From contig JAWMAR010000234.1 of the NCBI GenBank assembly GCA_036785375.1, positions 3,534,001 through 3,598,000 on the forward strand: a DNA stretch of 64,000 nucleotides, in the 5' to 3' direction. Position numbers and translations under genes: made by a program. A model generated the notes under the pieces. That model saw nothing but the letters and a program-made list of their open reading frames with translations, had not been told where the DNA came from and ran no database searches. This document shows positions 4,345 to 56,027 of the stretch, piece by piece. This DNA is from Leucoraja ocellata. Lineage: Eukaryota. Within the stretch, counting starts at the first letter, position 1. Every line of letters starts with the position of its first letter.

Positions 4345-5772
4345 CAGTGCCCTCCTAATGTTTGGGACAAAGACCCATCATTTATTTATTTGCCTCTGTA
4401 CTCCACAATTTGAGATTTGTAATAGAAAAAATTGCATGTGGTTAAAGTGCTCATTGTCCGATTTTAATAAAGGCCATTTTTATACATTTTGGTTTCACTA
4501 TGTAGAAATTACATCAGTTTATACATAATCCCCCCTATTTTAGGGCACCATCATGTTTGGGACACAGCAATGTCATGTAAATGAAAGTAGTCATGTTTAG
4601 TATTTTGTTGCATATCCTTTGCATGCAATGACTGCTTGAAGTCTGTGATTCATGGACATCACCAGTTGCTGGGTGTTTTCTCTGGTGATGCTCTGCCAGG
4701 CCTGTTTTGCAGCCAACTTTATCTTATGCTTGGTTTGGGGGCTAGTCCCCTTCAGTTTTCTCTTTAGCATATAAAAGGCATGTTCAATTGGGTTCAGATC
4801 AGGTGATTGACTTGGCCACTCAAGAATTGACCATTTTTTTAGCTTTGAAAAACTCCTTTGTTGCTTTAGCAAGATGTTTGGGATCATTGTCTTGCTGAAG
4901 AATGACTCACCGGCCAATGTGTTTTGAGCCATTTGTTTGAACTTGAGCAGATTGGATGTATCTGTACACTTCAGGATTCATTATGCTAATACCATCAGCA
5001 GTTGTATCATCAATGAAGATAAGTGAGCCAGTACCTTCAGCAGCCATACATGCCCAGGCCATAACACCCCCCACCACCGTATTTCACAGATTAAGTGGTA
5101 TGCTTGTGCAGTTCCTTTTCTCCTCCATACTTTGCTCATGCCATCACTCTGATATAAGTTAATCTTCTTTTCATCTGTCCACAAGACCTTTTTCCAGAGC
5201 TGTGGTTGCTCCTCTAAGTATTTCTTGGCAAACTTTCTTGGCCATCCTATTTTTGCAGCTAACCAGTAGTTTGCATCTTGCAGTGTAGCCTCTGTATTTC
5301 TGTTCATGAAGTCATCGGCAGACAGTGGTCATTGACAAATCCACACCTGACTCCTTAAGAGTGTTTCTGATCTGTCGGAAAGGTGTTTGGGGATTTTTCT
5401 CTATTACAGAGAGAATTTTTCTGTCATCAGCTGTGGAGGTCTTCCTTGGCCTGCCAGTCCCTTTGCGATTAGTAAGCTCACCAGTGCTCTCTTTCTTTTT
5501 AATGATGTTCCAAACAGTTGATTTTGGTAAGCCTAAGGTTTGGCTGATGTCTCTAACAGTTTTATTTTTGATTCTCAGTCTCATAATTGCTTTGTTGACT
5601 TTCATTGGCACAACTTTGGCTCTCATATTGATAAACAGCAATAAAAGTTTCCAAACGTGATGGATAGACTGGAGGAAAGACTAGGGGTTGAGAGCTCTCT
5701 AATACCTACATGTAGGAGGCATTTAAACACACCTGACCAATTACAAACACCTGTGAAGCCATGTGTCCCAAA
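4345..5772 (-). mobile_element. Tc1/mariner DNA transposon, copy 2 (same family), right TIR mostly lost
   Basis: TA at 4343-4344 then CAGTGCCCTCC-TAATGTTTGGGAC; inner direct repeat ATGTTTGGGACAC at ~4554; similarity ends at TGTGTCCCAAA ~5772. Confidence 0.95.
4597..5626 (-). pseudogene. Tc1 transposase pseudogene, full span (~340 codons) with frameshifts
   Basis: MRAKVVPMKVNKAIMRL..paired-like HTH..GRPRKT; VLWTDE (D1); WPSQSPDLNPIEH (E); C-terminus LQAVIACKGYATKY*. Confidence 0.95.
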
Positions 5773-10128: not shown

Positions 10129-10545
10129 CTAGACCAAGTGCTGCTCCCCCAACGCAAGAATCCACCCCAGGTTTAAGAGAGGGGTAGAGAGAAAGAGAGA
10201 GAAGTGCAGAGAGGGAAGGGGGGTAGCGGGAGAGAGGGAGGGGGTAGAGTGGGGGGGAGGGAAGGTGGAGAGGGAGGGGGGTAGAGAGGGTGGGAGTGAG
10301 GGTAGATAGGGAGGGTGCAGCTGCCGCACGAGCACTGGAGTGGCCCTCCGTCCCGGAGTGTCCTGTCCTGTCTTGCGAGTGCATTTTGACGTCACTCGGG
10401 GTTTTTTTCCCGAAATGGGTGAGTTTTTGGGCTGTTTTTAAAACTTTAAACGATTAATAGCTTCGGAAATATAGGTGGGAATGTGATGGGAAGATGTTTA
10501 TCGCCTTGACGGGAAAAATGTGAGTACGATATGTGAAAATGATGA
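10129..10545 (-). mobile_element. Non-autonomous Helitron, 3' end present, 5' end missing
   Basis: CTAG terminus at 10129-10132 next to host T (ACTAGACCAAGTG, same as 53592); body 10385-10545 is homologous to 26330-26480 and 54300-54470. Confidence 0.75.
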
Positions 10546-12230
10546 AGAATAAATGTCTGCAGATTTCCCAGTACTAGGATTGTGTACTGCTATTATTCCA
10601 TTACCAGATCACACCTGACACGGGAGCAATAAGCCCATTCATTTGAATGCAGAAGAATGGCTAGAAGATAAAGATCAATTAGGCTTTTTTTAAAATTTAA
10701 TTTAGTTACTTTAGGTATGGTTAGTTATTTTGCGGATGTTTTCCAGTGTAATTATTTTTTTCATTTCCTTGTGTATTGTATATGAAAGCTCATGAATGTC
10801 CTCGATATACACACAAACGCTCAATTACTATGATATCTTTGACCGCTTTCAACACAGTAAACATGGCAATGCTGACTGACAAAATATCTATCTCTCTGGG
10901 ATTGCCAATCAGTGGGCCCTGCATTGTTTTCAACTTTGCCAAATGGCTAAGGGCTGGTTTCTTTGTGAAGGTTCACACTGTGGCAACTACTGGAGAGAAG
11001 GGCAGGTTCAGTGGGGAGGTAACCAAGGCTAACAAACGGATAGGTAGGATTTTTGTTCCAAAATCAGTTTTTAGGAAGTGCTAGGTTATGTGGATTTGCT
11101 GGCTTTTGTGGTTATCCTTCACCAACTGAGCTCTTTCTGCAGCCCTTCCCAAAAACAGATTGACTGTAATAAATACAATCGATCTCTTGTCACTTTGACC
11201 TCATGGATTCTTTGAGGTTCAAATCATTTTTTTTTTCTTTCAAAACTATTTATATTTCACAAATAAAATTGCTGTTCTCAGTTTGGTTTAAAAATAAATA
11301 AGATATGTGTATGTTATGAAAGGCTAGTTTAATTATTTAAGATTTATTTAGTAATTTGACTACACTATCTTCACGGTGAATTATTGTTTATGAACTGATC
11401 TGAAGAAACTGTTGACTTAAACTTAAAAAAAATATTCCTCGTCGTGTCACAAACCTTTTCCGGCAGTTTGGAAGTTTTCTTAATGTTCCACATGCTTGTG
11501 TTGTGGCCAACTAAAACAAAAGAAAAAGATCAAAAGTTTTAAATGGAGAAACGTGATTGGGTGTCCATGTAACTGCCGAAACATTAAGTGCTTTAGGACC
11601 CTTCTGCCGTGATTGTTGGTGGGCAGATCTGGCAGGGTCATGTTGATTAAGTCTTCGTGAAAAGATTAACAAAATAAACTCCAGAAAGAAACTTGACTAA
11701 TTTAATTATTAAACCAGCAGCTGCACAATTCTGTTGCCGGTCTTGGATAATAAATTTTCTGTGCTTTTTATTATTATTGTACCCCCTCCCCCCCCCCCCC
11801 CCCCCCCCCCCCCTTTCCAACTGCCCTATTTATGAGAAGCTGTTTTCTCTTAAGTTCTTTCTATATTTAGGATTATGATCAAGGCTCCATGACTGTTGGG
11901 CTCAAGGCTATAAACTAGTTTGCAACATTATCTGTTTTTCCATGTAGTAAGTACAATGCATAGCTTTGGAGTACAGGAGATGGTATGAGTTGTTATTGTA
12001 AAATGAAAGGACTTTCTTTGTGTTTGCCAGATTATACTCCTCCTGCATTTCATTTGTGAAATGCACATTGTTTTATTTTGTGTTCAACATCAGGATAGAC
12101 ATCCTGAAAAATGTATTTGATTCCGTTTGGGACTGGATTTTCGCCACTGTCTCAAATAATGTTTGATCTTGCAGTTAAGATCACTAATACTCTTCTACGA
12201 TTCTCAAATGTGTTAGCTGCTGGCCAACCT

Positions 12231-26204: not shown

Positions 26205-26600
26205 TCTATATAACTAAAACTCTCATCTTGTTTGTGTGTATGCATATATGTGTGTGTGGGTGTGTGTCATCTGGGCACAATCTGCTTGATTCTCATTTCC
26301 TTACAATTGCTAGGCCACAGCCTTCCCAATATCACACATTCTACTCACATTTTTCCCCACGAGGCGATAAATGTCTTCCCGTCGCATTCCCACATATATC
26401 CGAACTTTTTAACCCTTTAAAGTTTTAAAAACAGCCCAAAAACTCACCCATTTCGGGGAAAAAAACCCCGAGTGACGTCACAATGTCCGTCCGGGAGGGA
26501 GGGGCACACCAGCTCACCCGAGTGACGTCACAATACACTCGCGAAGCAGTACGGGGCACAGCGGCTGCCGGCGCCCAACACCTGGTGGCACCGCATACTC
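26205..26600 (+). mobile_element. Non-autonomous Helitron, 5' portion
   Basis: Host A then TCTATATAACTAAAA (Helitron-type 5' TC end); body homologous to the 10129 and 53593 copies; no CTAG 3' end seen. Confidence 0.7.
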
Positions 26601-53339: not shown

Positions 53340-53921
53340 TATGTGGAAATGTTTGTTTCGGCCTAGAGACAAATGTCAGGAATAATCCTTGGAAGATAAA
53401 GCAAATTTAATTCAATATCTCAACCTAAGTTTAGAATCATGTTGAAAGTAGGGTCTTATTGCAGCTGTCTTCTTTTCCCAACTTGGCCATGACTGAAACA
53501 TAAAGAAGAACATTATAATTAATGGCTATCAAAGATTAAAATGAGCTCTGAGTTATTTACTGTCAATTTCTATGTTGCAAATTTATATACGACTAGACCA
53601 AGTGGGACCGGTTGGGTCCCATCCCCCAACGCAGGCGCGCGGCGTCACAAGGGAGGGTTGGTCCCCGAACGGAATAGTTCACCACTCACCCGTAGGTCCC
53701 AATACTCGCCATTCCCTAGAGAGGGATGGGTGGTAGAGAGGGAGGGGTGGGGTTAGAAGGAGGGGAGGCAGAAAGGGAGGAGGGTAGAGAGGGAGGGGAG
53801 TAGAGAGGGGTAGAGAGGGAGAGGGGCAGAGAGGTAGGGGGTAGACACCCCACCCCATCTCCCTCCTCCTCATTTCCCTCATCCTCCTCCCCTCACTCCC
53901 ATTCCCTGCCCCAGGACCTAC

Positions 53922-54250
53922 CCAGGTCGTAGATTAGCGCCAAGGCCTGGAACTCGGCCTGGTTCTCGTACTCGACCTGGCCCTGGCTCGTACTAGGTTC
54001 CAGCGGCAGCCTCCAGCCATCAGCTTGGTCGCCGCCTGGGCTCCAGTGCAGGTTCCTGACCCTGGAACCAGACTCGTCCTTGGTTCCACCGGCGGCTTCT
54101 TTCTCGGCCCCGGTCATGGCCCCATCACAAGCCCCGGGCTCGGCCCTCACTCCAGCTCCAGGCTCGGCTTCAGCCCAGGCCCAGTCACGGGCTCGGTCCA
54201 CGGCAGCCGCCTCCCCACCAGGCACCGGGCGACCAGCAGCAACCGCCAAT
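53922..54250 (-). pseudogene. Captured GC-rich host exon-like fragment inside the Helitron, ending in a SAC3D1-like motif and splice donor
   Basis: Open frame MAVAAGRPVPGGEAAAV..EYENQAEFQALALIYDL-G|GTAGG; absent from the copy at 10129. Confidence 0.5.
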
Positions 54251-54510
54251 CTTTATTCACCATGAGCGCTAGTGCCCCTTCCCCCCCCCCGCCTTGCGAG
54301 TGCAATGTGACGTCAGTTGGATTTTTTTTCTCTCAAAATGGGTGAGTTTGGGCTGTTTTAAACATTTTAAAGATCAAAAAGTTCAGAAATATAGGTGGAA
54401 ATGTGACGGGAAGATGTTTAGCGCCTCCAGGGGAAAAATGTGAGTAGGATGTGTGAAAATGGGAAGACTCTGGCCTGGCGTTTGGAAGAAAATAGGGATT
54501 AACCAGATTG

Positions 54511-54780
54511 NNNNNNNNNNNNNNNNNNNNNNNNNNNNNNNNNNNNNNNNNNNNNNNNNNNNNNNNNNNNNNNNNNNNNNNNNNNNNNNNNNNNNNNNNN
54601 NNNNNNNNNNNNNNNNNNNNNNNNNNNNNNNNNNNNNNNNNNNNNNNNNNNNNNNNNNNNNNNNNNNNNNNNNNNNNNNNNNNNNNNNNNNNNNNNNNNN
54701 NNNNNNNNNNNNNNNNNNNNNNNNNNNNNNNNNNNNNNNNNNNNNNNNNNNNNNNNNNNNNNNNNNNNNNNNNNNNNNNN
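54511..54780. other. Assembly gap (270 N)
   Basis: Run of N. Confidence 1.
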
Positions 54781-56027
54781 AGATAGATGAGGCCTTTAGA
54801 TTCCAATACCTAAAAACAGAATAGATGCGTTTAAAAATGGAAAGATACATACAGCTTTAGATCTGTAGTAATCTGAATCTTGTCCAGTGTCTTGAACTGT
54901 TACACAGTATTAATTAGATCCAGTTCCACTCAATACATATGTTTCACGCTATGACTCCAGTTACCTTTGATAGAAAGGTATTGTTTTTCTTTGAAGAAAT
55001 ATTCACATAATATAATCCCATTAATTTTTGAAAACTATTTTAATTAACTTTTCCCTACTTTGGCTGAAGGTTTATTTAAAGTGGAAGGGGAAGCACAGTA
55101 GAATTCACAGCCAAGGCAATGGATTATGAATCTACATTTCTCTTTGCACAAGTCATACCCGAAAAGAATTTAAACAAGGTAACCTTCAAATAGCAGCATA
55201 TGTTTGACGAGGGGGTTTGAAAAGAATCGGTTGTATGGCGCTTGTGGGTAATTGCTGATTGTAATTATTTTAAGATGTTCCAAGGTGTTAACATAACTTC
55301 TGTCCTCCATCTTCCACACACTAAAAAGGCATGTATAATACTAAGTAAGATGAAAGCCCGAACGGAAATGTTTTATTAGCCCAGTAAACTTGTGATCTAC
55401 TCTCCACTAATTAATGTCTGTGTAACAGGTGCAGATTGGCATTTCAATGATGCCCTGAGCCGCAGCAGCATTAGGCAGCAGTCTGGAGAGAACGCACATG
55501 GTTTCAATCACCTTGATCAGGGCCATACTGGATAGAGAGGTGCCAACAGAAGCAATGTGTTTCCTTGAGGGGATGGAAAAGTAGAACCAATCACCACTGC
55601 TTTGTTTGCCTCCTGCTATCTAGCTAAAAGAGCAGCATTGCAATGGCGGTGAAATAAGCTGTGCACAGAATCATACACCCAACTAGGGATGACCTGACAT
55701 ATTATATTCAATGTGTTTTAATTTATTTAAGGGTGATTACCTGCATATGATAAGGTTATTAATTGGTTTTAAGCTGCCTTACTTTGGATGCCACAGATAT
55801 GTGCGGGATTTGCACAGACGTGGCGAGGGGCAAGATATCAAGATCAGACACTTTCATGCTGCTGGGAATGCATGTGTTTTATATTGGATAAAGAAAAATT
55901 TTAAACGTGGCTATTTTGTATTCACATTGTCCACATTGAAACTCACTGATGTGAAGAATAGGTAGTGGGGCAAATTATTTAAAAAATCAATTTTCAATTG
56001 TTTTGTACTATATATCAGCATGAGATT

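Follow-up and report, generated by a model that had tools for sequence, protein, structure and literature searches.

Two described systems stand closest to the element reported here. In the bat Myotis lucifugus, HelibatN3 has amplified a piece of NUBPL, made up of the promoter, the first exon and some of intron 1, to about a thousand copies (PMC4224331). It drives chimeric transcripts, in a report that also describes experimental proof of read-through capture by Helraiser (PMC4778049). In Xenopus laevis, the 64 insertions of Heli1Xen1 (Helitron1) contain 19 captured coding fragments, of which 17 derive from the 5' ends of genes (PMC12001565). Our search of the openly accessible literature, at the level of listings and abstracts, returned no report of Helitron gene capture in cartilaginous fishes.

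Within a window of 64,000 nucleotides from the skate Leucoraja ocellata (contig JAWMAR010000234.1), the minus strand between 53593 and 54787 is occupied by a non-autonomous Helitron, whose identity as such is confirmed by the features collected in Table 1. We read this element, with a probability of about 0.88, as a member of a large lineage of non-autonomous Helitrons bearing a broken piece of the host gene SAC3D1, a lineage that likely arose by a single capture from genomic DNA through 3' read-through and was likely spread in trans by RepHel elements. High-copy gene capture by Helitrons is known among vertebrates from vesper bats and, to a small extent, from Xenopus, and the capture of SAC3D1 is of this kind; what is new is the lineage, the cartilaginous fishes.

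HelibatN3 and the skate element are alike in being non-autonomous Helitrons in which a host exon and its splice donor, captured at the DNA level, have been amplified. They differ in host, a bat in one case and a cartilaginous fish in the other, and in what was taken: HelibatN3 acquired promoter, 5' UTR and start codon, whereas the skate cargo begins at codon ~24-26 and has neither promoter nor start. The skate coding piece is also much longer, at ~260 codons in its oldest form, and has been eroded stepwise across subfamilies. Chimeric transcripts are described for HelibatN3, while no transcript use of the skate element was seen among the loose ends listed and the proteins scored. Heli1Xen1 is young and reaches at most 17 copies per gene (PMC12001565), compared with at least 536 matches for one gene in the skate, where the sampled copies are ~9% diverged from their own majority.

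Table 1. Parts of the SAC3D1-carrying Helitron and its two relatives, numbered from the first letter of the window
Feature	Position	Strand	Remarks
Sister copy, deletion derivative	10129..10611	-	Only GCGGCAGCTGC remains of the cargo
Third copy: 5' end, B module and 28-nt cargo remnant (26561-26588)	26205..26588	+	No 3' end seen
3' CTAG	53593..53596	-	T at 53592
Subterminal hairpin	53603..53621	-	7-bp stem, 5-nt loop
C-rich short-repeat module, typical of B copies	53717..53844	-	
G-rich stretch after donor	53845..53919	-	1.6-2 kb in oldest copies
Phase-1 splice donor GT of host gene	53920..53921	-	Contigs of runs X18 and X20
SAC3D1 exon end, SQGQVEYENQAEFQALALIYDL-G	53922..53988	-	tblastn; DNA 87-90% identical to fuller copies L034-L037
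Decayed SAC3D1 coding sequence: AVKEWRR / LVGR stretch, then AEP-repeat region	53989..54264	-	
Module B, non-coding 5' module of subfamily B	54265..54510	-	Also 10372-10541 and 26278-26485
N stretch in the 5' part of the element	54511..54780	-	Contiguous in L002, second copy of the locus
Helitron 5' terminus	54781..54787	-	TC after A at 54788; TCTA repeats

Both termini lie where the initial annotation, made from the letters of the window, had placed them, with A^TC at the 5' end and CTAG^T at the 3' end. The hairpin it had reported at 53604-53620 is likewise present, with a corrected span of 53603-53621, and its stem ends 10 nt from the 3' end of the element. Taken alone, this hairpin (-7.2 kcal/mol, z -0.76) is not above shuffled sequence, 42 of 200 shuffles being equally good; RepHel-coding elements carry an identical or compensated stem in the matching place. 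Among 74 sampled loci, in which haplotig pairs make the counts non-independent, the 3' end could be located in 32, each time with T as the next base, and the 5' end in 36, where the elements start TCT(A/G)T...AAAACTCT. A precedes the TC directly in 22 of these 36 and in another nine if the end is shifted over the TC repeat (31/36). No target-site duplication is visible in the flanks of the window element, judged at this filled site from the flanks alone.

The stretch of Ns within the 5' part had left the contiguity of the element open to objection. This locus is present a second time, on a different contig (L002), with flanks 98.5-98.7% identical to those of the window; there the element runs unbroken from the 5' end into the cargo, and the objection therefore falls. 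This second copy also holds a 1-kb insertion with internal tandem repeats in the C-rich module of the Helitron (L002:442-1457), which is not in the window and is thus a polymorphic insertion between the two. The block from 53900 to 54270 is CpG-rich as first described, its GC content of 0.66 and CpG observed/expected ratio of 0.65 comparing with 0.39 and 0.34 for the window.

SAC3D1 had been put forward as the source of this block, and the protein comparisons bear this out. The exon end in the window matches residues 264-286 of Rhinoraja SAC3D1 (P0006) at 20 of 23 positions (tblastn against the window, E 1.7e-7). In a fuller copy (L041), the translated frame (P0002) matches the SAC3_GANP family of Pfam (PF03399) at E 8e-7 and is 78% identical to the SAC3D1 proteins of Rhinoraja and Amblyraja, the sole two matches among 38 candidates; the eroded frame in the window itself does not match PF03399. 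Across the assembly (G000), PF03399 gave eight matches among 17 scored, comprising four exons of GANP and four Helitron copies with longer cargo, and the best match of the cargo is to SAC3D1 and not to GANP, which in the assembly reads ENEAEFRGYHVLLNL. A search of the assembly with skate SAC3D1 returned at least 95 matches (95 scored of 7578 candidates), all of the scored ones lying within residues 23-287. The match to SAC3D1 starts at residue 23-24, straight after the Helitron module.

Compared with skate SAC3D1 (XP_032902980.1, XP_078252027.1, XP_055514366.1), the source gene with which it has the exon end and the intron position in common, the cargo is missing codons 1-23 and everything past codon 286, and is frameshifted and stop-bearing; no host promoter or start codon of SAC3D1 was found in it. 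In the window, the decayed coding stretch from 53989 to 54264 has frameshifting deletions and has lost most of the SAC3 domain, and a short internal duplication lies at ~54009-53989. The skate SAC3D1 proteins (P0003-P0010) possess an AEPG repeat block of variable length, from about residue 70 to 185, and the cargo retains decayed DNA of this block.

The splice donor that the initial annotation had recognized after ...YDL-G, at 53921-53920, is present. In runs X18 and X20, RNA-type contigs follow the exon precisely to this GT and are spliced there to the next exon. Past the donor they encode S-D-Q-A-x-H-H-A-L-Q, as skate SAC3D1 does after YDL-G; the donor is therefore the host's own, and the intron position put forward for SAC3D1 proved correct. 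This comparison covered four of the 24 listed runs, set against L041, with the designation of X18 and X20 as RNA being a software guess. The G-rich stretch that follows the donor is likely the start of the SAC3D1 intron. As to use of the donor in RNA, splicing of the host type was found for SAC3D1, and use by a Helitron copy was not seen among the loose ends listed. No RNA-type run was listed as containing the window's element, and the small RNA-type runs X21 and X22 have one contig each with the 5' module, which is uninformative as to the parent gene.

The cargo is abundant in the assembly. A 24-mer from the exon end has at least 536 matches at up to one mismatch, against none for the control, in a count inflated by haplotig pairs, and it is found in 41 of the 75 sampled copies, which are the best BLAST matches and include haplotig pairs themselves. 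As a rough estimate, copies of the cargo may occupy about a thousand places, a figure that haplotig pairs may halve.

These copies fall into forms of differing completeness. The oldest (L074, L075 and L081, with L041 similar) are about 3 kb long and consist of a 5' module termed A, SAC3D1 codons ~24-286 without an intron, the donor, a G-rich tail of 1.6-2 kb and a Helitron 3' end, which terminates all four. L074, L075 and L081 retain 11 nt that are present in the host contig of run X20 and absent from most A copies. The subfamily to which the window element belongs, B, has a different 5' module and is missing most of the SAC3 domain; in a tree of 153 columns with midpoint root, whose bootstrap had not settled, 34 of 35 B rows together with two unclassed rows form a clade at 99/95. 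Deletion joints of the B type also occur in run X18, which is labelled as another organism, so the Helitron family spans species. Module B contains a TGACGTCA palindrome (window 54265-54310), and module A contains GCGCATGCGC and GATTGG just before the cargo (L074:1220-1340), motifs that we take to be CRE, NRF1 and CCAAT. Their occurrence is patchy and without a chance control: TGACGTCA is in nine of 29 B copies, GCGCATGCGC in four of 31 A copies and GATTGG in 23 of 31 A copies.

The sister copy at 10129 bears on the direction of these changes. The block 53900-54270 is missing from it, as had been stated, save for a short remnant of the cargo that it has kept. Its absence had been presented as though the sister predated the capture and the window copy had gained the cargo, a direction that the relatives of the sister contradict. 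Of the 23 other loci nearest to it, 19 carry the cargo. The remaining four comprise L123, in which the deletion junction is the same as in the sister, two loci with short remnants and one that is truncated. With 19 of 23 nearest relatives carrying cargo and the same junction recurring in L123, the cargo is most likely ancestral to subfamily B, to which the sister belongs, and the sister has most likely lost it.

Potential partners for transposition are numerous in the same genome. A search of the assembly with PF14214 gave 120 matches among 150 scored, with frames of up to 1851 aa, and it is on these matches, together with matching ends, that our identification of RepHel partners rests. The last 30 nt of the window element are identical at 28 positions to the end of a RepHel element on contig C532, and a RepHel element on C21 has a 5' start similar to that of the window element's family. 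A young RepHel family, 96-98% alike, has its 3' end in common with the oldest cargo forms; it is located at L106-L117 and L143-L152 (C2153, C2974, C168, C175 and C94), with some members in tandem, and, with open frames to 1851 aa, may be active. In ten sampled RepHel regions, no match was found to modules A and B, which lie between termini and cargo, save for one weak match of 39 nt (E 0.046). The G-rich tail gives just low-complexity matches of 65-77% to RepHel regions, and part of it could be the Helitron's own.

The most likely sequence of events would begin with a Helitron lying within the SAC3D1 exon that bypassed its own 3' terminator. Read-through would then have taken in what remained of the exon and some of the intron, as far as another Helitron end. 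The resulting SAC3D1-carrying lineage likely spread in trans by means of the genome's RepHel elements, as we infer from the matching termini. Later forms would have lost 11 nt, producing the frameshift, and most of the tail; subfamily B would then have arisen with a different 5' module and without most of the SAC3 domain, some of its copies, such as that at 10129, becoming almost devoid of cargo. The order of these losses is the one that the present forms suggest.

Several other readings of the cargo were weighed against capture of a single exon from genomic DNA. The initial annotation had entertained a chimera of two genes, one of them supplying the start context and SAC3D1 the exon end; we find this extremely improbable. 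The window's AAGATTGGCGG is indeed close to what we take to be the common vertebrate start context, and 110 codons are open up to the donor. At the site of AAGATTGGCGG, however, fuller copies carry GCG GTG AAG GAG TGG CGG, the A-V-K-E-W-R codons of SAC3D1, so that AAGATTGGCGG is a decayed form of the Lys-Glu-Trp-Arg stretch and no second gene is involved. Across 30 aligned copies AAGATGGCG occurs in none and GAGGAGTGG in 13, and AAGATTGGCGG is confined to the window and L002. Nor does the frame start with M, as had been read: it runs *RLAVAAG... after an in-frame TAA just upstream. Although the absence of stops up to the donor holds for the window, it is specific to the copy. The frame is open for 20 codons in L002, where a stop lies that far before the donor, and for at least 100 in nine of 29 scorable B copies and three of 24 scorable A copies, so that the 110-codon frame has come about by chance, through deletions in DNA of high GC content. 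Insertion of a retrocopied piece of SAC3D1 mRNA into a Helitron is a little less remote and still very unlikely. Retrogenes nested in Helitrons do occur in bats (PMC4224331), and SAC3D1 is transcribed in related organisms. Yet the cargo and the mRNA part company precisely where the exons join, and the cargo continues with the donor (G|GTAGG, and G|GTAGGT in A copies), so its template was genomic DNA or unspliced RNA and not processed mRNA; moreover, second-exon sequence was found neither in the assembly nor in the four long loci, and no poly(A) was seen. The donor thus largely refutes a retrocopy, an unspliced pre-mRNA template being the sole remainder, and the DNA-level capture of a SAC3D1 exon with its donor by a Helitron, proposed at the outset, is supported down to the intron position.

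In place of 3' read-through, the same capture could have come about within an existing Helitron by template switching or by gap repair, a less probable route: the cargo lies between two Helitron-type ends, the 3' end matches those of RepHel elements instead of being a new host-derived terminator, and module B meets the cargo at a common GCGG, as such a switch would leave. Against this, the oldest form is colinear from exon through donor to tail right after the 5' module, as read-through predicts, and its 3' end could come from a Helitron end resident in the intron. The cargo could since have been put to use, with some copies exapted as exon traps or alternative exons by way of the captured donor. 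We regard such exaptation as doubtful. Of 72 sampled copies, 67 retain an intact donor GT, and the exon-end segment survives in both subfamilies, but this retention is what the neutral rate of about 6% per site gives. Across 23 codons compared in 75 rows, the three codon positions diverge almost equally outside CpG (0.060, 0.059 and 0.056 for positions 1, 2 and 3) and N/S is 1.17, with no coding selection detected on the cargo. HelibatN3 does act in this way in bats (PMC4778049), and one Logan protein (P0011) joins a Helitron-type N-terminus, matching L061 at 54 of 60 residues, to later exons of SAC3D1. P0011 is most simply explained by an assembly join through shared words, however, and this is more likely than a real chimeric transcript. 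Furthermore, the donor loose ends listed (two of 65) both proceed to the next exon of SAC3D1 and none to a product of a Helitron copy, no host gene domain was found in the 64 of 158 window frames scanned, and among 7985 proteins scored against the frameshifted form, Rhinoraja SAC3D1 was the only match, the last being weak evidence. Given the N/S of 1.17, the neutral decay and the lack of a SAC3D1 start codon or promoter, the cargo is likely a passenger and likely inert.

In this lineage the source gene is clear, the intron position is confirmed and the steps of erosion can be read as a series that comprises the 3-kb form, the frameshift, the module swap and the loss of cargo. The series would allow the capture to be dated across skates and read-through to be tested against template switching. 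There is a practical aspect as well: where SAC3D1-like fragments number in the hundreds, they can lead both the annotation of genes and the assembly of transcripts astray in skates, of which P0011 may be an example.

A parental SAC3D1 locus was sought in the 3.4-Gb assembly with three probes, none of which found it: the C-terminal protein gave one weak match among six scored (E 0.49), a 27-mer of the next exon had no match at three mismatches, and the N-terminal 30 aa gave one match, the only one scored, at E 5.2. Incompleteness of the assembly is the simplest reading. Two loci with long cargo, on C645 (L041/L046) and C118 (L081), were considered as the parent and rejected, since each ends in a Helitron 3' end and the second exon is absent within 16-21 kb downstream. 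Exons of GANP are present on C35, while intact SAC3D1 was not found in the assembly. Spliced SAC3D1 is seen in both X18 and X20, the former of which has many Helitron-type contigs as well, so the Helitron family does not silence the gene everywhere. A more far-reaching proposal is that mass gene capture by Helitrons has taken place in skates too, as one more lineage of vertebrates, in which the SAC3D1 exon forms the core of a major lineage, with on the order of a thousand copies, two subfamilies and several species, and in which either the donors work in host transcripts as in HelibatN3 or silencing has cost this species its parent gene; we consider this combination improbable at present. Were the parent gene truly lost, or the donors used, the system would make it possible to test, in a vertebrate, the idea of conflict between host and transposon over exons that have been captured.

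Two further observations concern the surroundings of these elements. On C645, a segment of at least 28 kb is present twice, at ~698-728 kb and 805-835 kb; the two copies are 93-98% alike and each contains one long cargo element. In the window itself, the minus strand carries fragments of a Tc1-type transposase (PF01498, PF13358) at 886-1509, 4597-4977 and 5312-5680.
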